This document shows positions 30,841 to 45,622 of a DNA stretch of 64,000 nt, in pieces. A program made the position numbers and the translations under genes. The notes under the pieces are model-generated. The model was not told the origin of the DNA. It searched no databases and saw only the letters and a list, made by a program, of their open reading frames with translations. Positions within the stretch are counted from its first letter, which is position 1, and every line of letters starts with the position of its first letter. Where the stretch lies: assembly GCA_963697085.1 (NCBI GenBank), contig CAVOMR010000003.1, positions 1,026,745-1,090,744 on the forward strand, written 5' to 3'. Source of the stretch: Candidatus Dormiibacterota bacterium (GTDB taxonomy: Bacteria > Chloroflexota > Dormibacteria > Aeolococcales > Aeolococcaceae).

Positions 30841-32592
30841 CTACTGCTTGCCGAAGAACTCCACGTCGCTGAGCGCGACGGCGGTGCCGGTCGTTGACGG
30901 GTACACCGACGTGATCTGAATGGTCATGCTCGTGATGGAGCTCGCGCCGTTGATGGTGAACTGCTGCGAGTTGCCGGTGTCGGCGAGCGTCAGGTTCTGC
31001 GACCCGCCGTTGGAGAACACGATGTGCACCTCTTTCGGCCGCGCCTCGGACAGCTCGTTGGCGGTGTCGCCGGAGATGAAGAGCATCACGCTGATGTTGG
31101 TGTTCGGCGCAAAGCCGACCGTCAGCGTCGGATGCGGGTCCTTGGCGAGCGCCGCCTCCCAGAACGTGTTGCTGAAGGCGTCGACGGCGAGGCTGCCGTC
31201 GTGCCCGCTCACCGCGGAGCTCGCCTTCACCGACGTGGCGTGCACCGGCGTCGGTGGGCTGATCTTGCCCGTGAAGTTCGAGATCACGGCGTTGACCTTG
31301 CTGTTGACCGCGTCCCGGAACTGCGGGAGCGCGCCGTACGCAAGGCCGCCGAGCAGGATCACCGCCAGCACGACGTAGCGACCGACCCGCAGGATCGCGC
31401 CGAAGCTGAACCCACCGCGTTTGGAGCCGGGCCGCTCGCCCGCGGCGAGAACCTTGGCCTTGCGATGCGGGAGTATCCGCCGCCACCACGATGTGGACGC
31501 GATCGTGGCCGTCGCCAGCGACTGGCCGCAACGGCTGCAGAACTTCCTGACCGGCTCGTTGCCCTCACCGCACTGGCCGCAGATGAGGTCGCCGGGCTTG
31601 AGCCGCTTGCTCGGTGGGGCCGCCGCCGCGGGTTTGGGCAGTGGCCGGGCACGGAGCGCCGCAGGCTGCATCGCGGCGGGCTGCACCGCGGTCGGCTGCA
31701 CGCTTGCCGGCTGAGCCGGCGTCGCGGGAGCGGCCATCGGGGCCGCGGCAGTGGGAGCGGTGGCCGCCGGCTCCATCCCGGCGCCGGGCGCGCTCACCGG
31801 CCCGGAGGTTGAGGACGGTGTGACCCGGATGATCACGGGGGCGGGCGTCGGCGCGGGCAGGGTCGGAGGTGGCAGGGTCGGGCGCGGAAGGCTTGGCGCA
31901 ACCGGTGCCGGGGGCGGCGTCGCCGACCCCGTTGCGGCGGCGAGCGGGGAGACCGCACCCGGCGGCGGCCCGACGGGCGGGGCGCTCCTCGGCGGCCCCG
32001 ACGGCGGTGGGCTCGACGGCGGCGGGCTGGATGGCGGCGGGCTGGACGGCGGGCTCGACATCGGCGCCCCGGACGGAGGCGGGCTCGTCGGCGCGGCGGA
32101 CAGCGGCGGCCCGATCGGCGGCGCGCTCCGTGGCGGCCCGGACGGCGGTGGGCTCGACGGCGGTGGCGAGCTCGGGGGCGCGCTGCGTGGCGGACCGGAC
32201 GGAGGAGGCGAGCTCGGCGGCGCGCTCCGCGGCGCTCCGACGGGAGGCATCGAGGGACCGATCGGCCGCGGCGTCGCCGAGGGCGCTCCGAGCGGCGCCG
32301 GGGAACCCGGCATCGCCGGCCGAGCGCCGGGCGCCGGCATGGGCATGCCCGGGATGGTCGCGGGCGGGTCGATCGCCTCCTTCTTCGGAACGCCGATCGC
32401 CGTCACCTGCTGGACGAGCGCCATGAATCCGCCGCGGCGCGCGGGTTCCGACGCCTCCGGGACCGTGGGCGCAGCCTCGGGCGTGGCCGGGGGAGTGACC
32501 TTCTCCCCTGTCCACTCGAGGAATGCACCGCACGAGCCGCAGAACGTGTCGGCGTCAGAGTTGTTGAAGCCGCACTTCTTGCAGACGATCAT
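30841..32592 (-). CDS. bitopic membrane protein: two zinc ribbons, a ~190-aa Pro-rich tract, one TM, and a C-terminal discoidin/F5-8-type-C-like domain. It is the last gene of the CIS operon.
   Basis: Zinc ribbons are MIVCKKCGFNNSDADTFCGSCG and LICGQCGEGNEPVRKFCSRCG. The TM is GRYVVLAVILLGGLAYGAL. The C-terminal part runs SGHDGSLAVDAFSNTFWEA...ALSDVEFFGKQ. The gene starts 10 nt after the gpI-like stop. Confidence 0.65.
   Translation of the reverse strand: MIVCKKCGFNNSDADTFCGSCGAFLEWTGEKVTPPATPEAAPTVPEASEPARRGGFMALVQQVTAIGVPKKEAIDPPATIPGMPMPAPGARPAMPGSPAPLGAPSATPRPIGPSMPPVGAPRSAPPSSPPPSGPPRSAPPSSPPPSSPPPSGPPRSAPPIGPPLSAAPTSPPPSGAPMSSPPSSPPPSSPPPSSPPPSGPPRSAPPVGPPPGAVSPLAAATGSATPPPAPVAPSLPRPTLPPPTLPAPTPAPVIIRVTPSSTSGPVSAPGAGMEPAATAPTAAAPMAAPATPAQPASVQPTAVQPAAMQPAALRARPLPKPAAAAPPSKRLKPGDLICGQCGEGNEPVRKFCSRCGQSLATATIASTSWWRRILPHRKAKVLAAGERPGSKRGGFSFGAILRVGRYVVLAVILLGGLAYGALPQFRDAVNSKVNAVISNFTGKISPPTPVHATSVKASSAVSGHDGSLAVDAFSNTFWEAALAKDPHPTLTVGFAPNTNISVMLFISGDTANELSEARPKEVHIVFSNGGSQNLTLADTGNSQQFTINGASSITSMTIQITSVYPSTTGTAVALSDVEFFGKQ
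31806..32367. repeat. low-complexity Pro/Ser/Ala-coding repeats (SAPPSSPPPSGPPR-type) inside 30841-32592
   Basis: The translated tract is ...PRSAPPSSPPPSGPPRSAPPSSPPPSSPPPSGPPRSAPPIGPP.... The DNA is GGC/GGG-rich on the + strand. Confidence 0.6.
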
Positions 32593-32602
32593 CGATCGTC
32601 GC

Positions 32603-33154
32603 TCAACCTCCCGTCGCGATCTCCAATGCGTGGATCACGTGGGCCGGCTTCGAGGCGCCGACCAGCCGGTCAAGCGCGCGCGTGTCGATACCGGCGACGT
32701 CGTCCACATAGACCCGTATTGTCATACGCGGCTCGGGCTGACCGGGCAGGTCTGCGCCACTTTCGCGAGACCAGGCGACGCCGCCCGACTCGACGATCTC
32801 GACCCGGCCGCCGGTGACGAGCTCGACATGGGCTCGAAGGCCCTCGGCGGTACCCCGGATCCGGTAGATCTCGACGGCGCGGCGCACCAGCGCGCGACGG
32901 CGCTCCTCGGGCCAGTCATCGTCGAGCTCGGTCGCGACCCAGCCGCCCAGCCACGCCAGAAAGTCGTCCGGCGCGACGTCGGGATCGTGGTACGCCGCGA
33001 GATTGTCGAGCGATGCGATCAGCGGGCTCAGCACCTCGTCGAGGCCCGCCGTGAGCGCCTGGGCGAACCGGTCCTCCTGGTACAGCGCCGGGAGGTACGG
33101 TCCGAGCGGATGTGGGGTGGGCAGCCCCGGTACGAGCGCCCGCATCGCGCTCAC
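32603..33154 (-). CDS. CIS baseplate wedge protein, phage P2 gpI-like (Afp12/Pvc12-class N-terminal domain only)
   Basis: Sequence LPALYQEDRFAQALTAGLDEVLSPLIASLDNLAAYHDPDVAPDDFLAWLGGWV...VEIYRIRGTAEGL. GTG 33154 overlaps the gpJ stop (GTGA). ATG 33145 is an alternative start. Confidence 0.75.
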   Translation of the reverse strand: MSAMRALVPGLPTPHPLGPYLPALYQEDRFAQALTAGLDEVLSPLIASLDNLAAYHDPDVAPDDFLAWLGGWVATELDDDWPEERRRALVRRAVEIYRIRGTAEGLRAHVELVTGGRVEIVESGGVAWSRESGADLPGQPEPRMTIRVYVDDVAGIDTRALDRLVGASKPAHVIHALEIATGG

Positions 33155-35100
33155 GCCGACTCGACCCTGACCTGGTGCTCGTACGAGAAGACGAGCGAGT
33201 TCGACGCCACCTCGAGCCGCTGGGTCGCCGACCCGCGCGACCCGGTGGTCGGATCCGCGCCGAAGATGCGCACGTCCTCGACCAGCTCGACGTCGGGCAC
33301 CGACTGGAGGATCGAGAAGATCTCGCCGGACTGCACCGGCCGGCCGAACGGCCATCCCTGGCCGTCCGGGCCCCCGCTGATCGGGTTGAGGTGCCCGAAG
33401 AGGGCGTCGAGCGCGGCCGCCTCAACGCGGGCGACGCTGGCCCGTGGTCGGGACCGCAGCCGGGCGACGACGGTGACGCCCTGGTACAGCGGCGGCTCGA
33501 CGAGCACGCGCGTGCCCACGAGACGGGCGCCCTCGAGACGGGACGCGATCGCCTGCAGCGTCTCCTCACTCGGGATCAGCTGCTCGAACCGCAGACGCCC
33601 GCGGTCCTCGGGGGCGGATGGGACGACCAGGATGCGCACCGATCCCGCCTCGAGGCCCTCACCGGCGGCGAGGCAGCGCACCCGCCCAACCTCCGGCGCC
33701 GCCTCGCGCGAGAGCTGCTCGAAATCCTCCGCGGTCACCGCCCGGGCGCGCGTGCGCAGCTGGATCGGGCCGCGCTGCTTCGCGTTCTCGAGATCCTCGC
33801 CGTCGACGCCACCGCGCGCCGCCTGCCGGTTCTCGACACGGGCGACGTAGGGGATCGACGACTTCAGCACGGAGATCGCGCCGCGGCTCACGTTCCCGCC
33901 GCGACCGCCCCCGGTCGCGTAGGAGCGGAGGCGGAGCTGCTCGCCTTTCGCGGGCACCCGCCCGTAGAGGCGGATCGAGCCGTCGGGCTGGCGGACCGCC
34001 GGACCGAGCTGCACCTCGCCCGCCGCCGCGTCGAGGACGAACACCGCGTCGTCGGGCCCGGCGGCTGCGAAGTTCTGCACCTCCGTCCACGGCGTCCAGC
34101 CGTCGTCCGTGCTGCACTCGAGCACCGGATCGCCCGCGCCCGCGAGGACCGGGGCCCTCCGGACGGGGAACCGCTGACCCGACGTGCCGTCCGAGATCCC
34201 GAGCACCTCCTCGGTGACGATCTCCGCGTTCACGCCGTCGATCGTGCCGCCGATCGTCGCGGCTTCGACCGCCTGGATCTGCGGCGACGCGTTGTACGCG
34301 GGCTGGCCCTCGACGGGTGCGGTGATCCGCGCCCGAATCCATCCGCCGCGCCGGCCGTCGAGGACTGCGGGGACGTGCTCGCGACCGACATGGATGACCA
34401 CGTCACCGTCGCGGTTCAATCCGCCCGTCGCGTCGGCGTCGACGTCGCACTCGTGCCACGTCTCGCCGTCCCAGGCCTCCCAGACGAGCGGCGGATCCTT
34501 GGGATCGACGCCGACACCCTCGATCTGGCACTGCATGCGCAGCCGGACCGCGCAGTGCGGCACCGCGTCGCTGAGGCCGATGACCAGCGCGTCATCCGGC
34601 TTCGGCTTGGCTGCGAATGCCGCGAACCTCGAGCCGCGACGGAGCTCCTCGGTCCTGTCGACGCGCTCATCGGCGCCCGCGGCCTGCGTCGCGATCGACG
34701 CGAGCGAGCAGGGCACGACGTCCAGGTCCTCAACGGTCGAGAAGACGATCGCCCTGTCGGTCTCGGTGCGGACCGTCGCCGCCTTCGTGTTCACGGCGAT
34801 GCGCTGCACGGCCTCGGGAGGCGCGGCGAGCCAGAACGTGAGCGGCGTGCGCGCCGGAGTCGGCGGAAAGAGGCGCACGTCGATGAGCTCGAGAAACTTG
34901 ACATAGAGGCGATCGGGGACGCGGTTCAGCCGGTACACGAGCTGATCCGTCATCCACGCGAAGGTCTCGATCAGGGTCACACCCGGGTCGGAGACGTTGT
35001 GGTCGGTCCACTCCGGGCAGCGTTGCTGCACCATGCGTTTCGCCTCGTCGACGAGGTCCTGGAAGCGGCGGTCGTCGAGGTTGGGGACGGGAAGGGTCAT
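33151..35100 (-). CDS. CIS baseplate protein, gpJ / T4 gp6-like (Baseplate_J)
   Basis: Sequence MTLPVPNLDDRRFQDLVDEAKRMVQQRCPEWTDHNVSDPGVTLIETFAWMTDQLVYRLNRVPD. The start overlaps the gp25 stop (ATGA). Confidence 0.85.
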   Translation of the reverse strand: MTLPVPNLDDRRFQDLVDEAKRMVQQRCPEWTDHNVSDPGVTLIETFAWMTDQLVYRLNRVPDRLYVKFLELIDVRLFPPTPARTPLTFWLAAPPEAVQRIAVNTKAATVRTETDRAIVFSTVEDLDVVPCSLASIATQAAGADERVDRTEELRRGSRFAAFAAKPKPDDALVIGLSDAVPHCAVRLRMQCQIEGVGVDPKDPPLVWEAWDGETWHECDVDADATGGLNRDGDVVIHVGREHVPAVLDGRRGGWIRARITAPVEGQPAYNASPQIQAVEAATIGGTIDGVNAEIVTEEVLGISDGTSGQRFPVRRAPVLAGAGDPVLECSTDDGWTPWTEVQNFAAAGPDDAVFVLDAAAGEVQLGPAVRQPDGSIRLYGRVPAKGEQLRLRSYATGGGRGGNVSRGAISVLKSSIPYVARVENRQAARGGVDGEDLENAKQRGPIQLRTRARAVTAEDFEQLSREAAPEVGRVRCLAAGEGLEAGSVRILVVPSAPEDRGRLRFEQLIPSEETLQAIASRLEGARLVGTRVLVEPPLYQGVTVVARLRSRPRASVARVEAAALDALFGHLNPISGGPDGQGWPFGRPVQSGEIFSILQSVPDVELVEDVRIFGADPTTGSRGSATQRLEVASNSLVFSYEHQVRVESA

Positions 35101-35507
35101 GCCTCACTCTCGCTCGGAATGGTGTAGAAGGGAAACACCAGGTTGCGCGGGTCGTTGGTCGCCTTCGGGCGGTAGTGGACGTTGATGTAGAGCAGCGCCG
35201 GGTCGTCGTCGTCCGGGACCACGTCGACCTCCTCGATGATCACGCGCGGTTCCCAGCGCAGCAGTGACTTGCGCACCTCGACCGCGATCGCGTGCGCCGA
35301 GCTCGCGTCGGTGCCCGCGAACACGTAGTTGTGCACGCCGCACCCGAACTCGGGACGCATCGGGCGCTCGCCCGGCGCGGTGGCGAGGATGAGCCGCATC
35401 GCCTCCTCGAGCTCGCGCTCGCGGGACACGAGCGCGATGCCGCCGGTCGCATCGGTGCGCAGGGGGAATCCCCACCCGGATCCTATGAAATCGTCACTGT
35501 TAGCCAT
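35097..35507 (-). CDS. CIS baseplate wedge protein, GPW/gp25 family
   Basis: Sequence MANSDDFIGSGWGFPLRTDATGGIALVSRERELEEAMRLILATAPGERPMRPEFGCGVH. Confidence 0.88.
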   Translation of the reverse strand: MANSDDFIGSGWGFPLRTDATGGIALVSRERELEEAMRLILATAPGERPMRPEFGCGVHNYVFAGTDASSAHAIAVEVRKSLLRWEPRVIIEEVDVVPDDDDPALLYINVHYRPKATNDPRNLVFPFYTIPSESEA

Positions 35508-35511
35508 AACT

Positions 35512-35898
35512 TCACCCGATGAGCACGTTGGCGACGGTCGGCGTGATCGTCCCGGGGGTCGCGCAGCACGTGCACGTCGAGGACGCGGTGGCGGCGGGCT
35601 GGCCGCCGAGGAGCACGGTGAGGCTGCCGCTGACGATCGTGCCGATCTGCATGACCGGCACCATGTACGGATCGGCCGGAAAGAGGCCAACATGCGGCGG
35701 CGTGTTGTAGCCGGTGCAACCGACCACGGCTGCAGGCTTGCCACCGATCAGGACCGTCGGACAGACGCCGATCGTGATCGGCGCGCTGAACGGCAGCGGC
35801 GGCGAGGGTTGCGGGATCCCCGTGGCCGGGTTGGGAATGATGTGGATCGGGCACATCCCCGTGATCTGATCGCCCAGGACGATGGCAGGCGTGCCCAT
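35512..35898 (-). CDS. PAAR-domain spike-tip protein
   Basis: 128 aa, Gly/Pro/Cys/His-rich: GDQITGMCPIHIIP...VLIGGKPAAVVG...VLLGGQPAA. Confidence 0.75.
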   Translation of the reverse strand: MGTPAIVLGDQITGMCPIHIIPNPATGIPQPSPPLPFSAPITIGVCPTVLIGGKPAAVVGCTGYNTPPHVGLFPADPYMVPVMQIGTIVSGSLTVLLGGQPAATASSTCTCCATPGTITPTVANVLIG

Positions 35899-35899
35899 C

Positions 35900-37636
35900 T
35901 CAGTTCAGCTTGATGAGCGAGCCGCTCATCTCCACGACGCCGCCACCGCCGTCGACCTTCACGCCGGCGGAGCCGGAGACGTTGACGTTGCCCTGCGCCT
36001 GGATCGTGACGTTGGCTCCGCTGTTGAGGGTGATGTCGTCACTGTCGGTCTGCAGCGTCACCTTGCCCTTGCAGTGAATCGTGATCTCGCTCGTGGTCTC
36101 GTTGAGCGACACCTTGAGGTTGCCGTCGCTCGTGATCAGCGCGATGCCCGACTTGGAGTTGTCGTCGAGGAACACGAGCTTGTGCCCCTTGCGCGAGACG
36201 ACCCCACGTCGCTTGACCTTGCCACCGTCGACGAGCCCGTCGCCGAGGTCGGGCGTGTCCTTGCCGTTGTGCAGGGGGCTGAGGACGAACACCCTGCGCA
36301 GGTCACCGAACTCGCAGGCGCACAGCACCTCGTCGCCGACCTCGGGGAGGAACATCACGCCGCTGTTCGGTCCGGCGCCGACGTAGGCGACGCGCGCCCA
36401 GTCGCTCTCGTAGTCGTCCGACAGCCAGGGGAGCTTGAGCTTCAGGCGACCGAGCTTCTGCGGATCGTCGTTGTTGGTGACCACGGCGATGAAGACGCCG
36501 GGGACGGGCGGCGCACCCCCCGCGGCGCGTCCGTTGGTCGCGCCCAGCGACATGAGCCCGAGCGTCGAGCGATCCTGCATGCCGCTGATCTCGAACTCGG
36601 TCCTGTACCCGTCGTCGTCGAACACGTGCCGCGCGCGGGTCAGCGTGTACTTCCCGACGAACGCGTCCGCCACCTGGGCGACGCTCACCGCGGTCCCGGC
36701 CCGGAGCTTCGCGTTCCCGATCGCCACGCCCTCGGCCTCCGCGAACGAGCTGCCCAGGTGCTGCGCAACGGCCTTGGCGGTGTCGTCGACGTCCGTCTGT
36801 GACGTCAGCGGGTGGTTGTGCACGACGTACTCGGGCGAGCCGAAGTTCTGGGCAAGGCTGGCAGGATCATCCGGGAGGTCCGCGTGCGACGACGCGGGAT
36901 CCGCCGAGCCGACGAGCACCGCCTTGCTGCCGGGATCCCAGGCACGGACGCTGATCTGCGACACCTGCGCGGAGGACGTCACGCGCGGCCGGAAGGAGAT
37001 GAGGTCGCGACCGTAGACGAGCTGCGCCGGACCCTGGGAGTCGGCGTCGCCGGGGTCGGGACCGGTCGTCGACTCCACGGGCTTGCGGAAGAAGAACTGC
37101 CCATCGAGGACACCGACCTCGAAGCCCAGCTCTCGCGCGCGCGCCTTGAGGAAATCCCAGTCGGTGACGTTCACCTGGGAGACGAACGGCAGCACCGCGC
37201 CGCTGTCGTCGATCGTGCCCACGTCCAGACCGGCACGGCTCGCAACGGTTTGCGCCACATCTGACACTTTCACGTTCTGGTATGTCTCGGTGCGCCGGCC
37301 ACGATGCAGCCGGTGCGACTTGTCGTATCCGCGCACGATCGTGCGGTCCCACCCGCCGTCGTAGCTGGCCTCGAGCGCCGTGACCTCGCCACCGATGAGC
37401 ACGTCGGGGGTCGTGGAGCCGACCGTCGTGGCCTTGATGGTCACGGCCGAGCCGACCTTGACCGCGGCCTCGGTGATGAGGTTGTGCAGCGGGTCGTCGA
37501 ACACCATCGTGAACATGTCGGGAAGGTGGATGTCGTTGTCGACGACGACACCGGTGAGCCCGACTCGAAGGTTGTCGGCCAGCGGCGTGCCGTCGATCTC
37601 GACCGCGGGCCAGCTGACGACGACGTCCGCAGTCAT
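35900..37636 (-). CDS. CIS spike/hub protein, gpD + gp5/VgrG-like
   Basis: The sequence has a gpD-like N-terminus, PEVGDEVLCACEFGDLRRVFVLSPLHNG (OB-fold/base-V motif) and a C-terminal beta-helix. ATG 37636 overlaps the LysM gene stop (ATGA). Confidence 0.85.
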   Translation of the reverse strand: MTADVVVSWPAVEIDGTPLADNLRVGLTGVVVDNDIHLPDMFTMVFDDPLHNLITEAAVKVGSAVTIKATTVGSTTPDVLIGGEVTALEASYDGGWDRTIVRGYDKSHRLHRGRRTETYQNVKVSDVAQTVASRAGLDVGTIDDSGAVLPFVSQVNVTDWDFLKARARELGFEVGVLDGQFFFRKPVESTTGPDPGDADSQGPAQLVYGRDLISFRPRVTSSAQVSQISVRAWDPGSKAVLVGSADPASSHADLPDDPASLAQNFGSPEYVVHNHPLTSQTDVDDTAKAVAQHLGSSFAEAEGVAIGNAKLRAGTAVSVAQVADAFVGKYTLTRARHVFDDDGYRTEFEISGMQDRSTLGLMSLGATNGRAAGGAPPVPGVFIAVVTNNDDPQKLGRLKLKLPWLSDDYESDWARVAYVGAGPNSGVMFLPEVGDEVLCACEFGDLRRVFVLSPLHNGKDTPDLGDGLVDGGKVKRRGVVSRKGHKLVFLDDNSKSGIALITSDGNLKVSLNETTSEITIHCKGKVTLQTDSDDITLNSGANVTIQAQGNVNVSGSAGVKVDGGGGVVEMSGSLIKLN

Positions 37637-38358
37637 CGCGATCCCGCCGCCTGCGGATCCGGTGGGATGAGCAGCGTCGTCCCGGGAGACACTCGCAACG
37701 GATCGTCGATGCCGTTGGCCTCCGCGAGGACCCGCCACAACCCGGGGCTGCCGTACTCCGTGTAGGAGACGGAGTGGAGCGTGTCACCGGCCGAGACCAC
37801 GTGCACCCGACGGCCCGCGATGCCGCCGGAGGTCGGGTTGGTCCCCGGTACCGTCTCGGGGTTCTCGGTCATCGTGATCGACGCCTCGGCCCTGATCGGC
37901 TGCCCGGCGATGCCGAACTGCTTGTACGTGATCGACAGCGAGGAGATGTGGCCGACGAACTGGAGGCTCCCCCACGTGAAGGTGACTCTCGGCGGGTTCT
38001 GCAGACCGGAGATCACGCGCTCCGTCGGGCAGGTCCAGTTCTGGAGCTGGTTGATGTCGTCGCTGATGTCGCCGTCAGGCTCGAACGACTGATCGAACCA
38101 GACCACCATGGTCAGCGATCCTGGTGTCGATCGCTGGAACTGCTGTGGTCCGTGTCCCGTCGGAACTGCGCCGCCGGACTGGCCACCCGACGCGCTCGAC
38201 GGCTGTTGCGAGTTCGGAGCGCGATTCGGCGGCGCCTGCCACTGCGTCCGCCGGGTGATGTTCAGCGACTTCGGGTTGAGGGCGAGCGAAACCATCTGGC
38301 CCCCGCCCATCAGACGGGCGCGCTCGAGGCCGGCTGCGAGAGCGGACCCTAGTGCCAC
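37633..38358 (-). CDS. CIS LysM-domain protein (Afp7/Pvc7-class tube initiator/hub component)
   Basis: The C-terminal LysM is HVVSAGDTLHSVSYTEYGSPGLWRVLAEANGIDDPLRVSPGTTLLIP. A gp19-like core lies upstream. Confidence 0.75.
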   Translation of the reverse strand: MALGSALAAGLERARLMGGGQMVSLALNPKSLNITRRTQWQAPPNRAPNSQQPSSASGGQSGGAVPTGHGPQQFQRSTPGSLTMVVWFDQSFEPDGDISDDINQLQNWTCPTERVISGLQNPPRVTFTWGSLQFVGHISSLSITYKQFGIAGQPIRAEASITMTENPETVPGTNPTSGGIAGRRVHVVSAGDTLHSVSYTEYGSPGLWRVLAEANGIDDPLRVSPGTTLLIPPDPQAAGSR

Positions 38359-38362
38359 GGCG

Positions 38363-38794
38363 TCAGTTCAGGAATCCCTCGTGCGTGAGCACGAGTGTCT
38401 CGAGCGCCATCTTCTGCGAGCTCCCGTCGAGCTGCGGGCCTATCCACTTCGCCGGATAGACGCCGGTCAGGGTCCAGGTGATGACCTCACCCTGTGCAGC
38501 GTCGTGCAGCGTGATGCTGGCGGTGCCCTTCGTCGGCTGCATCACCATGGTGCCGAGCCACGCCTGCAGTGCGTTCGACTCCTCGGACGTGCACGCACGC
38601 TCGAGGGTGATCTGGCTGTATTTCGCGGCTTTCGGGAGGTAGTGCACGAACTGGTTGTTGCCGAGCTCCTCGTACTCGTCGCGCTGGAAATCGACCTCGA
38701 GCCCCTTGCAGGTGGACCAGGCGCCGAGGTTCTGGCCGTCGATGGTCACCTGAAAGCGGGCCGCGTGACCGCGTGGCGCGCTCGAGCCGGGCAC
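38363..38794 (-). CDS. CIS tube-family paralogue 3 (T4 gp19-like)
   Basis: Sequence ARFQVTIDGQNLGAWSTCKGLEVDFQRDEYEELGNN...ITLERA...WTLTGVYPAKWIGPQLDGSS...LETLVLTHEGF. Confidence 0.8.
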   Translation of the reverse strand: MPGSSAPRGHAARFQVTIDGQNLGAWSTCKGLEVDFQRDEYEELGNNQFVHYLPKAAKYSQITLERACTSEESNALQAWLGTMVMQPTKGTASITLHDAAQGEVITWTLTGVYPAKWIGPQLDGSSQKMALETLVLTHEGFLN

Positions 38795-38825
38795 GATCAG
38801 CGCCTCGTTGCGCGGGCTTCGCGCA

Positions 38826-39266
38826 TCACATGAATCCCTGGTGCGTCAGCTCGAGCTCCTCGGTCGCGACCTGGGCCGCGCTGGCGTCGAACCGCGGACC
38901 CGTGTACTTGGTCGGGAAGACCTCCTGGAACGTCCACTGCTGGACCTGCTTCCCGTTGGTGTCGAGCAGCGTGATCGTCGCGGGCTGCGGTGGCTGCGGC
39001 GAGCTCGCCTGCTGCGAGAGCCACTTGAGCAGCGCGCTCGACGCCTGCTGCGTGACCGCCCGGGTCAGCTTGATCGGCACGTAGTTGGCGCGGCCGGTGG
39101 CGTAGTGCGTGTAGTTCCAGGTCGCTCCGGGGGCGCCGCCCTCCTGGTACTTGGCGACGTCGAAATGCATCTCGATGCCCTCGCATTTCGACCAGGTGCC
39201 GAGGCTCGTGTTCCCGACGTCGACGGTGAAGCGAAGAGCGAGCCCAAAAGACGTGTCGTCAGCCAT
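38826..39266 (-). CDS. CIS tube-family paralogue 2 (T4 gp19-like, Afp5-class)
   Basis: Sequence LRFTVDVGNTSLGTWSKCEGIEMHFDVAKYQEGG...IKLTRA...WTFQEVFPTKYTGPRFDASAAQVATEELELTHQGF. Confidence 0.8.
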   Translation of the reverse strand: MADDTSFGLALRFTVDVGNTSLGTWSKCEGIEMHFDVAKYQEGGAPGATWNYTHYATGRANYVPIKLTRAVTQQASSALLKWLSQQASSPQPPQPATITLLDTNGKQVQQWTFQEVFPTKYTGPRFDASAAQVATEELELTHQGFM

Positions 39267-39275
39267 GGCATATCC

Positions 39276-40919
39276 TCATCGAAAATCTGTCAGCAGTCCC
39301 GCGCGCTCGCGGTCGATCAGCAACTCGGATCGCAGCTGGGTCCGGACCTGCCCGTAGACGCGACGGGCGAGGTCGTCGAGGTCGATCGGCGCTGCAGGTT
39401 CGTGGATCGTCTCCGTCGGTGACGCCGACGCGGCCGGCACTGGGACAGGCTGCCCTGGCGCGTCCGCCGGTGCCGGCTGCACCGATGCGATGGTTGGGTA
39501 GGGCACCGGGACAGCGCTCGCCGGCGGGCTCGAGGGCGACGTCACGTCAGGCGTAGGGAACGAGCCAGCGCCGGGACCTGGGGCGAAGGCAGGGCTCTCG
39601 GGCGCTGCGGGCGCAGACCCATCTGCCGGAGCCGCATCCTCGGGTGCTCGCTGCATCGCGACGGCGGGCTGCACGGCTGCGTGTCGCTGTTGCGGGAGGT
39701 GTGCCCCCGATCCGGGGAAGACGAGGGATCCGTCCGGCATGCGGATCGCGCGCCCCGAGGCAATCAGCTGGTCCTGGATGTCCTGGACCGTGGACGTGGC
39801 AGCTTCGTCGTCGTCGGTTCGGGTGGGCTGCGACGGGACCGGCGCAGGCGCGGGGGTTTCGGACGCGGTGGGCGGCGGCGCCGCCGCTCCGGCATCCCCG
39901 CGGACGTGCCGTTCCGTCATCGCGGCGTCGGATTCGAGCCGGCGCCCGGCCGGCGAGTGCTCGAGCGGCACGGCGTTGCCGAGGCGCCGCTGCTGAATGA
40001 CGTGGGTCAGCTCATGAGCGAGCAGACCGGCGCCCCTGCCGGTGTCGAGACGCCCGGCTGATGCGGGAATGAACACCTCACCACCGCGCGTCACCGCCCG
40101 CGCCTGCGCGGCAGCCGCGAGATCCGCAGCCTCCCGGCCCCGCTCGATGCGAACGTCGCCCACGTCGGTGCGATGGACCCGTCCGACCGCGGCTGCGACC
40201 GCGCGTGCCGGTTTCTCCGGAGCGGTGAGCTGCGCGGGCCCCTCGACCTGATCATGCGCAGTGGTCGGTGTCGCGTTGGCGTTCTCCTGTCCGAGGGGCG
40301 CCTGGAGCCCCAACGGACGCGGACCGCCGGCGCGACGGCGAATGACCGTCCGCTGCAGCCCGTGCTGCGGCGTGGCCGGGATCGACGGTGCGGCGACCTC
40401 CTCCTCGGTGCGCTGCATCGGCTCCTCGAATCGCGGCGCGGGGCGGGGCTCCGGAGGAGCCTGCACGAGCGCTGCCAGCGCGGCGTCCACCTCGGTGAGC
40501 GAACCCGTGTGCCCGCGACGAGCGCGCACGTGCTGCGGCACCTCTGGAGCCGGTCGGGCATCGCCCGGTTCCGAGGACGCGGTCTCACCCCATTCCTCGT
40601 CCCGATCCTGTGATTGACGCTCGGACCGCGCGCGCGTCGCCGGTCGTGCCGACGTCGCCAGTCCGCGCACCGTTCCCGGAGCGGCGGGCTCCGGGAGTCC
40701 CGCTCGATGGACCAGCGGCGGGCGCTCACGTGTCGAGCGCAGACGCCTGCTGAGCGCCTCGGCGAGCTCGGCCGAGCGCGCCGTCAGCGGAGCCCGAGCG
40801 CCGATGCTCGCCTGCAGCGGCGGCACCGCTCGCCACTCGGAATGCTGCGTTGGCTCAGGCGCAGGGGTACTGTCGACCCCCGCGCGCCCGCCACCGCGCC
40901 GCTGCCATGGCATGCGCAT
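39276..40919 (-). CDS. DUF4157 (HExxH) domain protein in the tape-measure position of the CIS operon
   Basis: The N-terminal half is disordered and Pro/Ala/Arg-rich. The DUF4157 core is VFIPASAGRLDTGRGAGLLAHELTHVIQQRR. The conserved C-terminal helix is IDLDDLARRVYGQVRTQLRSELLIDRERAGLLTDFR. Confidence 0.7.
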   Translation of the reverse strand: MRMPWQRRGGGRAGVDSTPAPEPTQHSEWRAVPPLQASIGARAPLTARSAELAEALSRRLRSTRERPPLVHRAGLPEPAAPGTVRGLATSARPATRARSERQSQDRDEEWGETASSEPGDARPAPEVPQHVRARRGHTGSLTEVDAALAALVQAPPEPRPAPRFEEPMQRTEEEVAAPSIPATPQHGLQRTVIRRRAGGPRPLGLQAPLGQENANATPTTAHDQVEGPAQLTAPEKPARAVAAAVGRVHRTDVGDVRIERGREAADLAAAAQARAVTRGGEVFIPASAGRLDTGRGAGLLAHELTHVIQQRRLGNAVPLEHSPAGRRLESDAAMTERHVRGDAGAAAPPPTASETPAPAPVPSQPTRTDDDEAATSTVQDIQDQLIASGRAIRMPDGSLVFPGSGAHLPQQRHAAVQPAVAMQRAPEDAAPADGSAPAAPESPAFAPGPGAGSFPTPDVTSPSSPPASAVPVPYPTIASVQPAPADAPGQPVPVPAASASPTETIHEPAAPIDLDDLARRVYGQVRTQLRSELLIDRERAGLLTDFR

Positions 40920-41083
40920 CAGATGTCACCCGTCTCGCCCATCTGCCGATGGATTCGGCCGATCTCTTCGATGAAGCGAAGCCGGAGCGCGTGTGGGAGA
41001 TCGAGGATGCTGTCGAGCTCCCAGTGGAAGTAGTAGGCGACGTACGCGACCTCCTCGAAGAGCTGGTCGGCCGCGTACGTCAT
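40919..41083 (-). CDS. small CIS-associated ORF (54 aa), absent from the ORF track because it is under 60 aa
   Basis: My translation is MTYAADQLFEEVAYVAYYFHWELDSILDLPHALRLRFIEEIGRIHRQMGETGDI. Its ATG overlaps the upstream stop (ATGA) and its stop overlaps the downstream ATG (TGATG). It resembles the small DUF6760-type proteins of eCIS loci (from memory). Confidence 0.6.
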   Translation of the reverse strand: MTYAADQLFEEVAYVAYYFHWELDSILDLPHALRLRFIEEIGRIHRQMGETGDI

Positions 41084-41490
41084 GCTTCCCCCGGGCGATC
41101 ACCCGCGATGTCGACGGTGAATTCGTTGTGGCATGACGGGCAGGTCACGAACGCCTCGGTGTGACCGTCCTGGTTGATGCGCCGGTACAGGTCCTGCAGG
41201 AACGCCAGGTCGGACGCGAACAGCCCTTCGATGACGTACGAGTCGACCTCGCTCAACGAGCCGAGCCGGGTGACCGTGCGCTCGAGCAGCAACACGGTCA
41301 TGTACGCCGCGTTCTGGCGCACGCGCGGGTCGCTCTGCGGACCGATCTCGTCGCGCGCGGTTGCGAGCCGCATGATCCCCTCGCGGTGCGTGACCCCCTT
41401 GCGGTCGACGTAGCCGCGCGGAAGCACGAACGGGAACTCGGTGGTCAGCTCCGAACGCGTGCCGGTCAACTCCTGTGCGGCCAGGCTCAC
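41080..41490 (-). CDS. CIS assembly-chaperone-position protein (136 aa)
   Basis: GTG 41490 overlaps the tube stop (GTGA). Sequence TEFPFVLPRGYVDRKGVTHREGIMRLATARDEI...FLQDLYRRIN...VTCPSCHNEFTVD. It lies between the tube and tape-measure-position genes, as phage tail chaperones do. Confidence 0.6.
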   Translation of the reverse strand: MSLAAQELTGTRSELTTEFPFVLPRGYVDRKGVTHREGIMRLATARDEIGPQSDPRVRQNAAYMTVLLLERTVTRLGSLSEVDSYVIEGLFASDLAFLQDLYRRINQDGHTEAFVTCPSCHNEFTVDIAGDRPGEA

Positions 41491-41952
41491 GGAGCCACCC
41501 GCTCGAGCAACTCGCAGACGATCGTGACCTCCTCCATCAGCACCTCGCTCGAACCCGCCTTGAGGGGGCTGATCGAGATCTTCGCGGGCCATCCGTCGTG
41601 GAAGTGGTAGCGCGCGACCGGCGTGCCGTCATACCCGTACATGACGATCGAGCCGCTCTTGCGCGCGCCGACGATGTCCCCGTGCATGACCGAACTCGTG
41701 CCACGCCCAGAGCTCCATCGACGTGTTCTTGCCGCGTCGCAACGTGATCGTCGGCGGCTTGCGCTTCCCGGGGAGCTTCTTGAGGATGTTGGCTCCGCTG
41801 GAACCGTTCTCCATGAAATCGATCACCTCGACCTCGGTGGTGATCCCCGTCAGCTCCGAGAACTGCGCGATCTCGTAGCCGTCGACGGTGATCGAGAACC
41901 GCGCCGCCGAGATGGCGTCGTTGGGCATGCTCGGACCAAGACCTGCTGGCAT
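41487..41952 (-). pseudogene. CIS inner tube protein (T4 gp19 / Afp1-class). The frame is broken at 41692-41697 as assembled.
   Basis: The N-terminal piece is ARFSITVDGYEIAQFSELTGITTEVEVIDFMENGSSG...ITLRRGKNTSMELWAWHE. The C-terminal piece is MHGDIVGARKSGSIVMYGYDGTPVARYHFHDGWPAKISISPLKAGSSEVLMEEVTIVCELLERV. Deleting one base of GAACTC joins them as WHESVMHGD. Confidence 0.85.
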
Positions 41953-41962
41953 TTCTAACCCC

Positions 41963-43492
41963 TCACTCGCTGACGGCCGCGCCGCCGGCGAACTGCGCGA
42001 TGCGGAAGACGACGAACTCGGCCGGCTTCACCGGGGCGATGCCCACGTCGATGATCAGCTGACCGATGTCGATCGTGTCCTGCGTGTTGTTCTCGGCGTC
42101 GCACTTGACGAAGAACGCCTCGCCTGCGGTGGTGCCGAAGAGCGCGCCGTCGCGCCAGACACGGCGGAGGAACGCCGAGACGTTGCGCTTGACCGCGTCC
42201 CAGAGGCGCGAGTCGTTGGGCTCGAACACGACCCACTGCGTCCCCTCGAGGATCAACTCCTCGACGAAGTTGAACAGCCGGCGGACGTTGAGGTAGCGCC
42301 ACTCGGGATCGCTCGAGATGGTGCGCGCACCCCAGACGCGGACGCCGCGACCCGGGAACGCGCGGATGCAGTTGATGCCCGAGGGGTTGAGCTGATCGTG
42401 CTCGCCTTTGGTGATCTGCAGCTCGAGCGTGATCGCTCCGCGCACGACCTCGTTTGCCGGCGCCTTGTGCACGCCGCGCGTGTCGTCGCTGCGCGCCCAG
42501 ATGCCCGCCATGTGCCCGCTCGGCGGGATCATGAGCCCCTGGCCCTTGAGGGGATCGAACACCTTGATCCACGGCCAGTACAACGCCGCGTACTTCGAGT
42601 CGTATCCCGCCTTGTCGACGCGCCACTCCTTGACCTGCTGCGCGTTCAGCGCGGGCGGTGCGTCGAGGATCGCCACGCGATCGCCCATCAACTCGCAGTG
42701 CGCGATCATCGCGAGCTGCACGGCCTGCACGGCCTCGAGGTCGATGATCCCGCGCTGGTACGCGGCCATCACGTCGGGAACGCTGAGCATCGTCACCTCG
42801 TCGACCGCTTCCAGGCCCGCGAAGCCGGTGCGGTCGGCGGAGTTGCCGACGTAGTCGTCCGCGGTGACGCGCACGGCGGTCACCGCGGTGCCGCCGGTGA
42901 GCTTCACGCTCGCCTTCTCCGGAACGATCATCGTGCCGCCGCTGCCGATCTCCTCGAGACGGATCAGCTTGGACCGCGCCTTGACGACGGTCGCCGCGTT
43001 GGTCGGACCGCGCTTGGTGCTGACGTTGTCGAACGTCTCCTCGACCTTGCCGCCGCGCGACACGGTGACCTTGAAGGTGTCCTCCCCGGGCTCTCCGGGA
43101 TCGCCGATCTCGACACTGATGTCATCGCCGGCGGGGCCACCCTCCGCCGCGGTCACGCGGTACACGTTGCGGCCCGGCTCGCCCCTGCCCGCAAGCTCCG
43201 CGCCGGCACTCGGGGCCGCCGCGTCGCCGTCGGACCCGATGCGCACCACATATGCGGAGCCGCCGCCGTTGAGGAAGTATCCGTACACCGCATGCGCGAG
43301 GTACGAGCCCTCGACGAAATCGCCGAACACCGAGCTGAACTGCGTCCAGTTGGTGACCAGCGTGGGTGTGTTGGCGGGGCCTTTCTCGGTCAGGCCGACG
43401 AACGCGGCGACCGCGGTGCCGACACCCTCGATGGGTTTCGAGCCCGACGACACCTCCTGAACGTAGACGCCGGGCGACAGATAGCTTGGCAT
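41963..43492 (-). CDS. CIS contractile sheath protein
   Basis: From ATG 43492 (RBS GAGGAG): MPSYLSPGVYVQEVSSGSKPIEGVGTAVAAFVG..., then GHMAGIWARSDDTRGVHKAPAN and INCIRAFPGRGVRVWGART, with AEFVVFRI at the C-terminus. Confidence 0.92.
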   Translation of the reverse strand: MPSYLSPGVYVQEVSSGSKPIEGVGTAVAAFVGLTEKGPANTPTLVTNWTQFSSVFGDFVEGSYLAHAVYGYFLNGGGSAYVVRIGSDGDAAAPSAGAELAGRGEPGRNVYRVTAAEGGPAGDDISVEIGDPGEPGEDTFKVTVSRGGKVEETFDNVSTKRGPTNAATVVKARSKLIRLEEIGSGGTMIVPEKASVKLTGGTAVTAVRVTADDYVGNSADRTGFAGLEAVDEVTMLSVPDVMAAYQRGIIDLEAVQAVQLAMIAHCELMGDRVAILDAPPALNAQQVKEWRVDKAGYDSKYAALYWPWIKVFDPLKGQGLMIPPSGHMAGIWARSDDTRGVHKAPANEVVRGAITLELQITKGEHDQLNPSGINCIRAFPGRGVRVWGARTISSDPEWRYLNVRRLFNFVEELILEGTQWVVFEPNDSRLWDAVKRNVSAFLRRVWRDGALFGTTAGEAFFVKCDAENNTQDTIDIGQLIIDVGIAPVKPAEFVVFRIAQFAGGAAVSE

Positions 43493-43509
43493 GCGCAGTC
43501 TCCTCACCG

Positions 43510-43540
43510 GTGGGACACGTGGATGCGTCGAGAGTCCCAC
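43510..43540 (-). promoter_or_regulatory. stem-loop in the sheath 5' leader / divergent promoter region
   Basis: A 7-bp inverted repeat GTGGGAC (43510-43516) / GTCCCAC (43534-43540) with a 17-nt loop, ending 18 nt upstream of the sheath ATG and directly before its RBS. Confidence 0.3.
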
Positions 43541-43677
43541 AGCGCATGTGCGCTCGCGCGGCACGCACGGGCCACCGTTGGGGCACAGGCGGATGCCCGA
43601 AGGTGCAGTCCGCTTCGCCCTTCCGGCTGCCCGCATCAGCCTTGCGCGCGGTGCGCCACGGCGCGAGCCTCGAGGCG

Positions 43678-44361
43678 ATGATCGCCGACGTCGACGCGTC
43701 GCTGCGCTCGCTGCTGCGCGCGACCGCGCTGCACGGTTCCACCGTGGACGTCGTCTTCGACTCGCCGACGAAAGCGTGGAGCGACCACGTTGCCGGCGGT
43801 GTCGTCGACGCATATCTCTGGGAGATCCGCGAGGACGTGACGAGGCGGCAGAACGACTGGGAGGACGTGCGCAACGACGAGGGCAGGGTCATCGGGCGGC
43901 GGCCGCCGCTGCATCGCTACCGGTTGCGCTATCTGCTCACCGCCTGGGGCGGGACCCCCGCGGACGAGCACCGTCTGCTCTCGTCGGTGCTCGCGTCGCT
44001 CGCCGATCAGCAGGCGATCCCCGCCGACCACATCAGCGGCGACCTGGTCGAGGAGGGGCTACCGGTGTTCCTGACGGTCGCGCTCCCCACCGACGGCGAC
44101 AACCCGCCGACCGACCTGTGGGGCGCGCTCGGCATCGCGCCGCGTCCCGCGCTGGACCTCGTCGTGACGGCTCCGCTTCCGCGTCCGGTGCCCGCCACGG
44201 TCGCCGTGCCGGTTCGCGAGCGCGTCATCACGGTGGCGGACCGGACCAACGGCACCTCGGAGGTGGTTCCGACCAAGGTGGCGGACGAGCGGCGCCGCGA
44301 CGCGCTTGCACCGTCGGGAGCCGCGAGCGCGGCCACGCGCACCGTCCGCCGCCGCGGTTAG
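43678..44361 (+). CDS. DUF4255 (Pvc16/Afp16 N-terminal-like) CIS protein, encoded on the opposite strand to the rest of the operon
   Basis: Sequence MIADVDASLRSLLRATALHGSTVDVVFDSPTKAW...VDAYLWEIREDVTRRQNDWE...HRYRLRYLLTAWGGTPADEHRLLSSVL...LWGALGIAPRPALDLVVTAPL. Confidence 0.78.
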   Translation: MIADVDASLRSLLRATALHGSTVDVVFDSPTKAWSDHVAGGVVDAYLWEIREDVTRRQNDWEDVRNDEGRVIGRRPPLHRYRLRYLLTAWGGTPADEHRLLSSVLASLADQQAIPADHISGDLVEEGLPVFLTVALPTDGDNPPTDLWGALGIAPRPALDLVVTAPLPRPVPATVAVPVRERVITVADRTNGTSEVVPTKVADERRRDALAPSGAASAATRTVRRRG

Positions 44362-44362
44362 G

Positions 44363-45622
44363 TCAGCTGTTCGGCTTCAGCGAACCCGCCCAGACCATCC
44401 CATCCGAGCACTGGGTGCCCGGCGGCGACGGCGCCGGCGGCCCGGGGCTCTGGCACTGGACCTGCAGGATCATGTTCTGACCCGATGTGAACGTGATCGG
44501 GTTGACGAAGTGGAAGTCCAGGTCGCGGAAGTTGCTGAGCTGCTCCTGGAACAGCACGCCGCCGCAGCCGCGGCTCAGCGTCAGGATTCCGGTGTCGCCG
44601 TTCGGGTTCTGGAACACGAGGTCGGTGAGCGAGAACGTGTTGCCCGCCGGCACGGTGAGTTGACCCGCGTTGTTGGCCGGGCATCCGGAGGAGTTCCCGG
44701 TACCGGCTTTCACCGACAGCCTCCCGCTCGCCGGGCCGCCGCCGCTACCGCCCGGCGTCGGCGTGACCGTCGTGCTCGAGGGTGTCGGCGACGAGCCACC
44801 GCCACCACCACCGCCGCCGCCGCCCGGCTTGATCCCGGCAGCCGAGAGCGCGTTGTTGGCGGCGGTCGTCGCGGTCGACTTGATCGCAGGGTTGAGGACC
44901 GTCAGCCAGAGGACCACGGCAACGACGGCGAGGGCGATCACCGCGGCCACCGCCTTGGGCAGCCAGGTCGGCAGGATCGGGGTCTGCACCATCGAGCCGT
45001 CGACGCTCACCGGAGGAGCCTCGCGCGGCTGGATGATCGTCTGGAAGCGATGGGTCTTCGCGCTCCCGGTCAGGAATCGCTTCTTCGGATGCGCTCGAAG
45101 GGTGACGATCGTCGCGGTGCCGGGCTCGGCCACAACGGTCGTCGGGTTGAATGTGAACCGAAGCGCCTCCTCCTGGTCCACGCCACCGAACCCGAGCGTG
45201 AGCGGCGTGTTGCCGCGGTTGTCGCAGGCGAGCTGGTGCTTGCCGGTCCGGCTCCCGTGGGAGATGAGCGGCACCAGCTCGCCGGCGAGCTCGGTGAACG
45301 CCCCGATCTGGAGCGTCCCCTCTTCGACGCTCGTGTCCGACGGGTCGACCTCCGAGGTGACCTTCACGCCGAACGGCGTGGCTCCGGCGCGCGCTGCGGA
45401 CACGCGCGCCGGCCTGAAGGAGATGCTCACCTGGCCTTCCGCGTCGGGGAAGAGCGGCAGCGTGTCCGGCGTGACGGTGGCCCAGCGGGCGGCGTCCCCC
45501 AGCACCTGGATGTGGAAGTGGTCGACCACCGCGCCGGTGTTGCGGATCGTGAGCTGCGCGACGGCCTCGGAGCCCGGCTCGACGCTGAGTGCCGGGGTCG
45601 TCAGAACAGACCGAGCGGTCAT
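44363..45622 (-). CDS. bitopic membrane protein: two cytoplasmic Ig-like (CARDB/NEW3-like) domains, a TM, a poly-Gly linker and a Cys-containing C-terminal domain
   Basis: Sequence PALSVEPGSEAVAQLTIRNTGAVVDHFHIQVLGDAARWATVTP. The TM is AVAAVIALAVVAVVLWLTVL, followed by GGGGGGGGGSSPTPSSTT. The C-terminal domain has 4 Cys. Confidence 0.55.
   Translation of the reverse strand: MTARSVLTTPALSVEPGSEAVAQLTIRNTGAVVDHFHIQVLGDAARWATVTPDTLPLFPDAEGQVSISFRPARVSAARAGATPFGVKVTSEVDPSDTSVEEGTLQIGAFTELAGELVPLISHGSRTGKHQLACDNRGNTPLTLGFGGVDQEEALRFTFNPTTVVAEPGTATIVTLRAHPKKRFLTGSAKTHRFQTIIQPREAPPVSVDGSMVQTPILPTWLPKAVAAVIALAVVAVVLWLTVLNPAIKSTATTAANNALSAAGIKPGGGGGGGGGGSSPTPSSTTVTPTPGGSGGGPASGRLSVKAGTGNSSGCPANNAGQLTVPAGNTFSLTDLVFQNPNGDTGILTLSRGCGGVLFQEQLSNFRDLDFHFVNPITFTSGQNMILQVQCQSPGPPAPSPPGTQCSDGMVWAGSLKPNS

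Follow-up and report, generated by a model that had tools for sequence, protein, structure and literature searches.

Positions 30841-45622 of a 64-kb stretch of DNA (contig CAVOMR010000003.1; the whole stretch of 64,000 nucleotides that was analysed is called the window here) encode a contractile injection system (CIS). The locus is assigned to type IId and is Streptomyces-like (CIS-Sc-like). It holds a complete, selected machine of the CIS-Sc type with CisA-like and Sco4256-like partners and LuxR/MalT-type regulators, and it has no AAA+ ATPase. In all 13 assessable loci without the ATPase, a DUF4157 domain lies within the protein that occupies the tape-measure position (the slot protein). The best explanation, which we consider fairly probable, is a functional CIS-Sc-type machine that is cytoplasmic, CisA-docked and a member of an ATPase-less sub-lineage, with the DUF4157 slot protein as ruler and cargo.

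Organisation and class of the locus

As the window has about 70% GC, genes were called by the GC content of third codon positions (GC3) and by reading frame, and start codons were adjusted by hand. Fourteen minus-strand genes run from 43492 down to 30841 with intergenic spacings of -4 to +34 nt, and GTGA, ATGA and TGATG overlaps are found at six of the junctions. The operon begins with sheath, gp19 tube, a 136-aa open reading frame (ORF), DUF6760, eCIS_core/DUF4157, two more gp19 genes and CIS_tube+LysM; after this hub come VgrG, PAAR, gp25, Baseplate_J, Tail_P2_I and a 583-aa Zn-ribbon/transmembrane (TM)/discoidin-like protein. The genes of the operon and its divergent arm are as follows.

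41963-43492, minus: contractile sheath (Cis2/Afp2-4 homologue), 509 aa; Pfam Phage_sheath_1 and Phage_sheath_1C
41487-41952, minus: main inner tube (Cis1a-like, gp19 family), frameshifted in the window; Phage_T4_gp19, E 2.9e-28 once the two frames are joined
41080-41490, minus: tail-assembly-chaperone-like protein, 136 aa, with a C-terminal CxxC, at the sco4251 position; PHROG 508 tail assembly chaperone, E 5e-5
40919-41083, minus: DUF6760 small protein, 54 aa, the second ORF at the chaperone position; Pfam DUF6760, E 3.6e-12
39276-40919, minus: tape-measure-slot protein, 547 aa, with embedded DUF4157/eCIS_core and a HELTH motif; Pfam eCIS_core, E 1e-16, residues 241-312
38826-39266, minus: tube paralogue B (Cis1b-like tube initiator); Pfam Phage_T4_gp19, best PDB match 9gtp_a, E 6.9e-19
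38363-38794, minus: tube paralogue C (second Cis1b-like copy); Pfam Phage_T4_gp19, best PDB match 9gtp_a, E 1.2e-19
37633-38358, minus: LysM hub or tube adaptor (Cis7/Afp7); Pfam CIS_tube, E 5e-18, and LysM
35900-37636, minus: VgrG-like spike (Cis8/Afp8), a single contiguous ORF; Pfam Phage_base_V, Phage_GPD and DUF2345
35512-35898, minus: PAAR spike tip (Cis10); Pfam PAAR_motif, E 3.5e-12
35097-35507, minus: gp25-like baseplate wedge (Cis9); Pfam GPW_gp25, E 8.7e-24
33151-35100, minus: Baseplate_J wedge (Cis11), 649 aa; Pfam Baseplate_J, full-length PDB match 9gtp_1K, E 1.4e-230
32603-33145, minus: short P2-gpI-type wedge (Cis12), 180 aa; Pfam Tail_P2_I
30841-32592, minus: putative CisA-like bitopic membrane adaptor, 583 aa; Pfam Zn_Ribbon_1 and DZR, NCBIfam NADase_discoid
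43678-44361, plus: tube/sheath cap or terminator (Cis16/Afp16, Pvc16_N); Pfam Pvc16_N, E 5.8e-33
44363-45622, minus: putative Sco4256-family single-TM membrane protein, 419 aa, candidate effector or partner; Pfam Cep192_D3

The Pfam matches to core parts of extracellular contractile injection systems (eCIS) exceed the gathering scores, with the exception of LysM and DUF2345. The eCIS core set of Chen 2019 is present as tube, sheath, LysM hub, VgrG, gp25, Baseplate_J and Pvc16_N cap; its remaining member, the Afp15-type ATPase, is not in the locus. An initial annotation, made from the sequence before these searches, had described fourteen co-directional minus-strand genes with start-stop overlaps, and the gene map bears this out; the sheath, tube, hub, spike, tip, baseplate and DUF4157 parts that it had listed were all matched in the Pfam search. 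It had also placed a DUF4255 gene beside the sheath gene. The position and family are right, but the gene is on the plus strand and divergent, separated from the sheath gene by a 185-bp gap, and the gene at 44363-45622 therefore lies outside the sheath operon.

In PDB sequence searches, CIS-Sc proteins were the top matches for the sheath, Cis11, Cis12 (full-length) and both Cis1b-like tubes. The sheath matched that of the S. coelicolor CIS (8bky/9gtp) over its full length, with E 9.9e-201. Cis12, which would have 183 aa if its start were the GTG at 33154, matched 9gtp_E (190 aa) with E 4.5e-36; its match to NCBIfam CIS12_fam was only partial. The gene order, too, equals that described for sco4253 to sco4242 (PMC10066040, PMC10020575). 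The earlier suggestion that the locus is closer to the cytoplasmic CIS of Streptomyces is thus supported by both the top PDB matches and the gene order.

CIS-Sc belongs to eCIS subtype IId, a subtype without conventional fibre (Afp13), typical tape measure (Afp14) and ClpV (Casu 2023). In the survey of Chen 2019, most IIc and IId loci lack afp12 and afp13, and no lineage II locus has afp14. The gene map of the present locus has the features of class IId: VgrG is a single contiguous ORF, there is a single afp11, and afp13 and afp14 are lacking. As initially annotated, no fibre gene was found in the 64-kb window. The accompanying view of a stripped-down parts list does not hold, because the absence of fibre and tape measure and the short wedge are normal for subtype IId (Cis12 has 190 aa in 9gtp) and are not peculiar to this locus.

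A prophage tail module, an R-type tailocin or a type VI secretion system (T6SS) would have sheath, tube and baseplate families in common with the locus. No capsid, portal, terminase, integrase or lysis families were found among the window genes scanned, in line with the initial view that this is not a prophage, and TssB/C, membrane-complex and ClpV families of the T6SS were likewise unmatched among the proteins scanned; the sole T6SS-family Pfam match was a sub-threshold one of TssF to Baseplate_J. Moreover, Baseplate_J and Pvc16_N are both present here and are both lacking in T6SS. With a Pvc16_N cap, DUF4157, DUF6760 and CisA-like genes in place and CIS-Sc systems as the closest relatives, an origin of this kind can be practically dismissed.

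The nearest loci by sheath gene are in Candidatus Dormibacterota metagenome-assembled genomes (MAGs), L001 (98%) and L002 (93%). Both the operon and the housekeeping flanks (GT87, M50 protease, ADH, BacA, DUF11, carboxyl transferase and methyltransferase) are shared with L001 and with L084-L086 (ENA contigs of 1.3-3.2 Mb), and for this reason the window is read as chromosomal DNA; recovery of the same context in contigs of this size indicates that it is stable. By these sequence comparisons the host is a Dormibacterota bacterium (NCBI kingdom Bacillati) and not an actinomycete, which corrects the earlier impression of a high-GC Gram-positive-type genome. A scan for promoters and terminators gave nothing exceeding chance.

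Absence of the ATPase

The Afp15-type ATPase was defined as a winged helix (PF22977) plus AAA (PF00004). It was found in the whole 64 kb neither by tblastn with an Afp15-type query nor by a profile hidden Markov model (HMM) search of the six-frame translation, as the initial annotation had said. The ATPase is really missing at locus level. By the same six-frame profile search it is absent from 24 related loci. ATPase-less loci are found in L001, L002, L082 and L084-L086, in several Ilumatobacteraceae and Mycobacteriales MAGs and in the cultured organisms Lentzea aerocolonigenes, Actinokineospora spp. and Solihabitans fulvus. In 46 related loci, including that of the Dormibacterota MAG L026 and most of those from Chloroflexota, an ATPase gene directly follows the cap gene. 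Loss of the ATPase is thus not peculiar to this locus; it marks a sub-lineage, seen in the 24 loci and the sheath tree, that includes cultured Pseudonocardiales.

Every locus contains a single DUF4157 domain. In some it is part of the slot protein; in others a small gene of its own on the divergent arm encodes it, and this separate form is the counterpart of Sle2 of S. lividans. Where 9 kb or more of upstream sequence was available, the domain was separate in 26 and in the slot in 6 of those with an ATPase, and separate in none and in the slot in 13 of those without (the class of L058 was set from the six-frame profile search). In a neighbour-joining (NJ) tree of sheaths, a single split separated all 18 ATPase-less loci with a cap gene from the 46 that bear an ATPase, with a bootstrap of 78/100, and the actinobacterial ATPase-less loci alone were supported at 100/100. 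L078 and L079, which have no cap gene in the 10 kb upstream, were scored as unknown in this test; the split holds when they are so scored and fails when they are counted as ATPase-less. As the ATPase-less loci lie on one side of the tree, the events concerned were few and are not independent.

Afp15 is present in more than 85% of eCIS loci and is counted among the core components (Chen 2019), and Vladimirov 2023 describes eCIS regions as encoding the AAA+ ATPase without exception. PVC and AlgoCIS depend on this ATPase to load their cargo, and in S. coelicolor biological activity requires it. An alternative is therefore a split system, in which an ordinary type IId CIS is served in trans by an ATPase, and perhaps by further cargo genes, from elsewhere in the genome. 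Split eCIS loci do exist (Chen 2019), and the long low-complexity Arg/Pro/Ala-rich N-terminus of the slot protein resembles the disordered, ATPase-dependent loading sequences of AlgoCIS. The best 120 of 2411 ATPase homologues (at least 59% identical to a Dormibacterota ATPase) include none that could be matched to the 0.3-3.2 Mb contigs with this type of locus, which is a weak argument against a split system. The ATPase-less architecture is also common to Dormibacterota and Actinomycetota, which fits the transfer of a self-sufficient module. On balance an ATPase acting in trans is unlikely, though it must be taken seriously, and a machine that works without one is preferred.

The tape-measure-slot protein and the chaperone pair

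The order tube, chaperones, slot protein, hub parallels the phage order of tube, chaperones, tape measure and hub. The 136-aa chaperone-like protein had no Pfam or NCBIfam match, and its single-sequence AlphaFold2 (AF2) model reached a pLDDT of only 55. It is 62-90% identical across phyla, a conservation on a par with that of the sheath. The DUF6760 gene has an ATGA overlap with the gene upstream.

Between DUF6760 and the tube initiator a single long ORF (484-1042 aa) was found in 60 of the 60 related loci that cover the region. In the window its product consists, as read from the sequence, of a long low-complexity Arg/Pro/Ala-rich N-terminal region, DUF4157 and a C-terminal region, whose last ~35 aa or so are conserved in the distant loci L004, L012 and L026. 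No hydrophobic or TM segment was found in it, and eCIS_core was its sole Pfam domain, with no recognisable enzymatic domain at the C-terminus. Its 547 aa are exceeded within the cluster by the 649 aa of Cis11.

Two systems offer precedents. Tme of S. davawensis is a DUF4157 tape-measure-related effector that copurifies with spike and tube initiator (Nagakubo 2024), and the AlgoCIS cargo (Cgo1/2) has a disordered N-terminus followed by DUF4157 and a C-terminal domain. The slot protein is thus a candidate for a built-in cargo or length determinant. The locus had been said to have no obvious payload; this is too strong, because the slot protein combines the Tme position with an AlgoCIS-like cargo layout, and the flanking protein of the Sco4256 family adds to the doubt.

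The ATPase-bearing relatives L003, L024 and L026 encode DUF4157 on the divergent arm in small proteins of its own (228-345 aa), and an annexin-repeat protein is encoded on this arm in L003. These are candidates for cargo or adaptors.

Membrane proteins at the operon end and flank

The last protein of the operon has an N-terminal Zn ribbon, a Pro-rich linker that is a degenerate tandem repeat, a second Zn ribbon, a TM segment (residues 395-413) and a C-terminal NADase-type discoidin domain predicted to bind glycans (NCBIfam NADase_discoid, 55.7 bits against a cut-off of 38). A sequence search of the PDB gave nothing meaningful. Over residues 317-583, which span Zn ribbon, TM segment and C-terminal domain, it shares 39% identity (E 3e-64) with a Streptomyces protein that has the same layout and an acidic N-terminal region. 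The gene for a 314-aa homologue comes straight after Tail_P2_I in Lentzea sp. E54. In Sco4242 (CisA) itself the N-terminus is unstructured, a Cys-rich stretch that binds Zn immediately precedes the TM segment, and a C-terminal domain of ~150 aa, related to sugars, faces out; the protein is required for firing. By layout and sequence the terminal gene is identified as encoding a CisA-like adaptor, a known fibre substitute. The zinc-ribbon/Pro-rich/TM/discoidin-like layout had been read correctly in the initial annotation; the assignment as a CisA-like adaptor revises the interpretation.

A fibre-like receptor-binder role for Sco4242 was first proposed by Vladimirov et al. In an extracellular eCIS, particles released by lysis would attack other cells and the Zn-ribbon/discoidin protein would be such a receptor binder. 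Its gene does lie in the fibre position and its C-terminus is predicted to bind glycans, and Sco4242 was detected in purified particles. Against this, the CisA-like protein has a TM segment, and for CisA a bitopic membrane topology, with the C-terminus outside, has been demonstrated. Furthermore, CIS-Sc and the related particles of Chloroflexota and Deinococcota have been seen only inside cells, and no lysis cassette was found among the window genes scanned. Attack on other cells is therefore improbable, and a cytoplasmic, CisA-docked machine is favoured.

The flanking protein at 44363-45622 gave an AF2 model (pLDDT 84) that starts with two PapD/Ig-like sandwiches and continues through a TM helix and a Gly/Pro linker, which is disordered, to a beta-sandwich at the C-terminus. 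Foldseek matched the model to ASH/PapD-like domains (HYDIN, CEP192), and FimC, a pilus chaperone, came at rank 44; in this search with the whole model Ig/PapD-like domains dominate, and the fold of the C-terminal domain was not identified. Over its N-terminal 249 aa the protein shares 47% identity (E 6e-76) with the Streptomyces 'Hydrolytic protein' P0314, whose gene comes immediately after the CisA-like gene, and SCO4256 is annotated as a 'possible hydrolytic protein'. Homologues with 35-45% identity stand beside a LuxR gene in many related loci. In Sco4256 homologues the first domain is similar to periplasmic pilus chaperones, the second is a TM region and the C-terminal one varies (Vladimirov et al.). 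Sco4256-4258 are single-TM proteins with a common N-terminus, and both cell death and the filling of the tube lumen require them (Casu et al.). From its sequence and predicted structure the flanking protein is placed in the Sco4256 effector family.

In Lentzea sp. E54 a gene for a 986-aa PD40/VWA (integrin-beta-like) protein (L081:10942-13902) lies between the CisA-like and Sco4256-like genes. Its product may be a further accessory or cargo in the ATPase-less clade.

Selection and the tube-gene frameshift

Ratios of non-synonymous to synonymous substitution rates (dN/dS) were determined for the window against L001, L002, L082 and L084, at dS values of 0.3-0.9. They were 0.02-0.09 for gp25, 0.05-0.06 for the sheath, 0.06-0.20 for PAAR, 0.06-0.12 for the 136-aa chaperone-like protein, 0.08 for Cis12, about 0.09 for Cis11, 0.09-0.19 for the tubes and 0.12 for VgrG. 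The most relaxed protein was the slot protein, at 0.29. Of the housekeeping genes, BacA gave 0.08-0.10 and the carboxyl transferase about 0.10. Summarised as 0.02-0.15, the ratios show the structural genes to be under purifying selection similar to that of their housekeeping neighbours.

This bears on whether the locus is a decaying remnant that ceased to function once the ATPase had been lost and the main tube gene had acquired a frameshift. Compared with L001 and L002, that gene has one extra base (T) at ~41693-41694; it is intact, with 154 aa, in L084-L086. Two other genes of the window are also split by frameshifts: fabF at ~61600-61630, its N-terminal ~80 aa being in another frame upstream of 61507, and a yyaL/Thioredox_DsbH-like gene at ~6771-6790 (6771-6986 plus 4919-6778). 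In related long-read assemblies different genes are broken in each. Because of these other breaks the tube frameshift is read as, probably, an indel sequencing error. With strong purifying selection on all structural genes and an intact tube gene in L001, L002 and L084-86, decay is very improbable, and the locus is taken to encode a functional machine.

Proposed mechanism

In the favoured mechanism, particles would assemble free in the cytoplasm, as the work on Streptomyces suggests. By the same analogy the Zn ribbons of the CisA-like protein would face the cytoplasm, and its discoidin domain, which would bind glycans, the outside. On envelope stress this protein would dock the baseplate to the producer's own membrane and trigger firing, and the outcome would be regulated death or lysis of the producer. 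The slot protein would be built into the tube lumen during assembly, with its conserved C-terminus as an anchor to the initiator/spike. It may double as ruler and cargo; ATPase-driven loading of a separate cargo would then be dispensable, as the comparative pattern suggests. The broader proposal, that a coherent sub-lineage of Streptomyces-type CIS in Dormibacterota, Ilumatobacteraceae and Pseudonocardiales has dispensed with the ATPase and loads a fused DUF4157 module by co-assembly, is put forward more tentatively, as plausible rather than probable.

Several points weigh against this explanation. An ATPase elsewhere in the genome is plausible, because S. coelicolor needs its ATPase and split eCIS loci exist, and the related loci were viewed over 10 kb on either side of an anchor (the sheath, CisA-like or Sco4256-like homologue), this genome over 64 kb. 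The sheath tree is a simple NJ tree, and its support for including the Dormibacterota group is moderate. The slot protein differs from Tme in having neither TM helices nor a nuclease and in not being the largest ORF. The CisA-like and Sco4256-like assignments were made through Streptomyces and Lentzea proteins of the same layout and through context, rather than through Sco4242 and Sco4256 themselves. The tube-gene frameshift described above must also be set on this side. Finally, localisation, firing and cargo in the sub-lineage are all inferred.

Regulators and neighbouring genes

Two regulatory genes lie side by side beyond the end of the operon.

29555-30283, plus: LuxR/GerE-family regulator, probably the cluster regulator (cf. 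SCO4263); Pfam GerE
26845-29595, plus: large MalT/AfsR-like ATP-binding regulator (AAA_22 and Trans_reg_C); Pfam

Homologues of the GerE regulator, 43-59% identical, are found in more than 30 related CIS loci, and in S. coelicolor the LuxR protein SCO4263 controls sco4251-4253. The same 916-aa MalT/AfsR-like gene adjoins the GerE gene in the syntenic L082, and a fragment of it is found in L026. The AAA_22 protein was considered as a substitute for Afp15 and rejected, as it is a MalT/AfsR-like regulator.

The regulators are adjoined by two further plus-strand genes, one for a Gly-rich protein with an N-terminal hydrophobic segment (25426-26832) and one for an uncharacterised protein in which such a segment is followed by a Cys (24400-25365). 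L082 has similar-sized genes at the positions of both, one with a faint NHL match in Pfam, the likeness being one of size and position only. Between the CisA-like gene and LuxR lies a gene for a small protein with a weak CARDB-like match (30294-30833, plus); a short similar stretch is found beside the cap gene in L002, and L082 has a 224-aa gene at the same position.

Farther out, a minus-strand gene at 22799-24184 encodes four near-identical IPT/TIG repeat units, corresponding to a 351-bp tandem repeat (3.8 copies, 90% match). In L082, too, there is a TIG protein at a similar position; no link to the CIS is established. A DUF222 plus HNH endonuclease gene is at 20088-21308 (minus), and a fragment of the same family occurs in the CIS divergent arm of L026 (5535-6095). 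On the other side, a DUF11/CLIPPER surface protein (48592-51087, minus) has a sortase-like signal (TPETG, hydrophobic helix, RRR), which hints at a monoderm envelope, although the ORF runs on for a further ~80 aa. The adjacent gene, for a 1167-aa S8 subtilase (51560-55063, minus), is absent from the syntenic L084-86 and L001. A minus-strand ORF at 47015-48364 was rejected as a spurious antisense artefact of high GC, the real gene there being that of the carboxyl transferase (47210-48889, plus).

Significance

The ATPase-less clade is informative because the ATPase has been described as invariable or core and is needed for loading or activity elsewhere. A selected clade of this kind, with DUF4157 always in the tape-measure slot, provides a testable hypothesis on the roles of the ATPase and of DUF4157, and it points to cultured strains in which the test can be made. 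If the hypothesis is true, particle assembly has been naturally separated from ATPase-driven cargo loading. CIS of the Streptomyces type, with CisA-like and Sco4256-like partners, are also extended to the uncultured phylum Dormibacterota; no report of a CIS in this phylum was found in the literature searched. As far as could be found, the ATPase-less sub-lineage with DUF4157 in the slot has not been described previously.

Comparison with known systems

The closest known system is CIS-Sc of S. coelicolor (sco4242-sco4263; 8bky, 9gtp). The two operons have the order sheath, tube, two small ORFs, slot protein, tube initiator and LysM hub in common, and both continue with VgrG, gp25, Cis11, a short Cis12 and CisA. 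Both have their cap gene in divergent orientation and are accompanied by a membrane protein of the Sco4256 family and a LuxR regulator, and both lack a fibre and a classic tape measure. The window differs in having no equivalent of the AAA+ ATPase gene sco4259, in the fusion of DUF4157 into the slot protein (the CIS-Sc form is a separate small Sle2-like protein) and in the duplication of the Cis1b-like gene. It has one Sco4256-like gene, without a ricin domain, whereas CIS-Sc has three. A PAAR gene is present in the window and in S. venezuelae and absent in S. coelicolor. The host, a member of the Dormibacterota, also differs.

The Tme CIS of S. davawensis (Nagakubo 2024) resembles the window in having a largely low-complexity DUF4157 protein encoded immediately upstream of the tube-initiator and baseplate genes. 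Tme, however, has more than 2200 aa, TM helices and a C-terminal EndA-like nuclease, and the 547-aa protein of the window has none of these. The sheath clade of S. davawensis is reported to be distant from CIS-Sc, whereas the sheath of the window is close to it.

The CIS of Roseiflexus and other Chloroflexota and Deinococcota (Gaisin 2026) are, like that of the window, type IId systems outside the Actinomycetota, and Chloroflexota loci are the next-closest sheath relatives (~74%). Their particles are intracellular and free-floating, as is proposed for the system of the window. In Roseiflexus the ATPase is encoded and a close homologue of cisA is lacking; the window shows the opposite, with a CisA-like gene but without the ATPase.

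Afp, PVC and AlgoCIS are set apart from the window by their tail fibres, long Afp12/Afp11 cage, Afp14 tape measure, cargo-loading ATPase and operon-terminal toxin genes. What they have in common with the window is the core of sheath, tube, hub, spike, gp25, Baseplate_J and cap, and the AlgoCIS cargo also has the DUF4157 layout.

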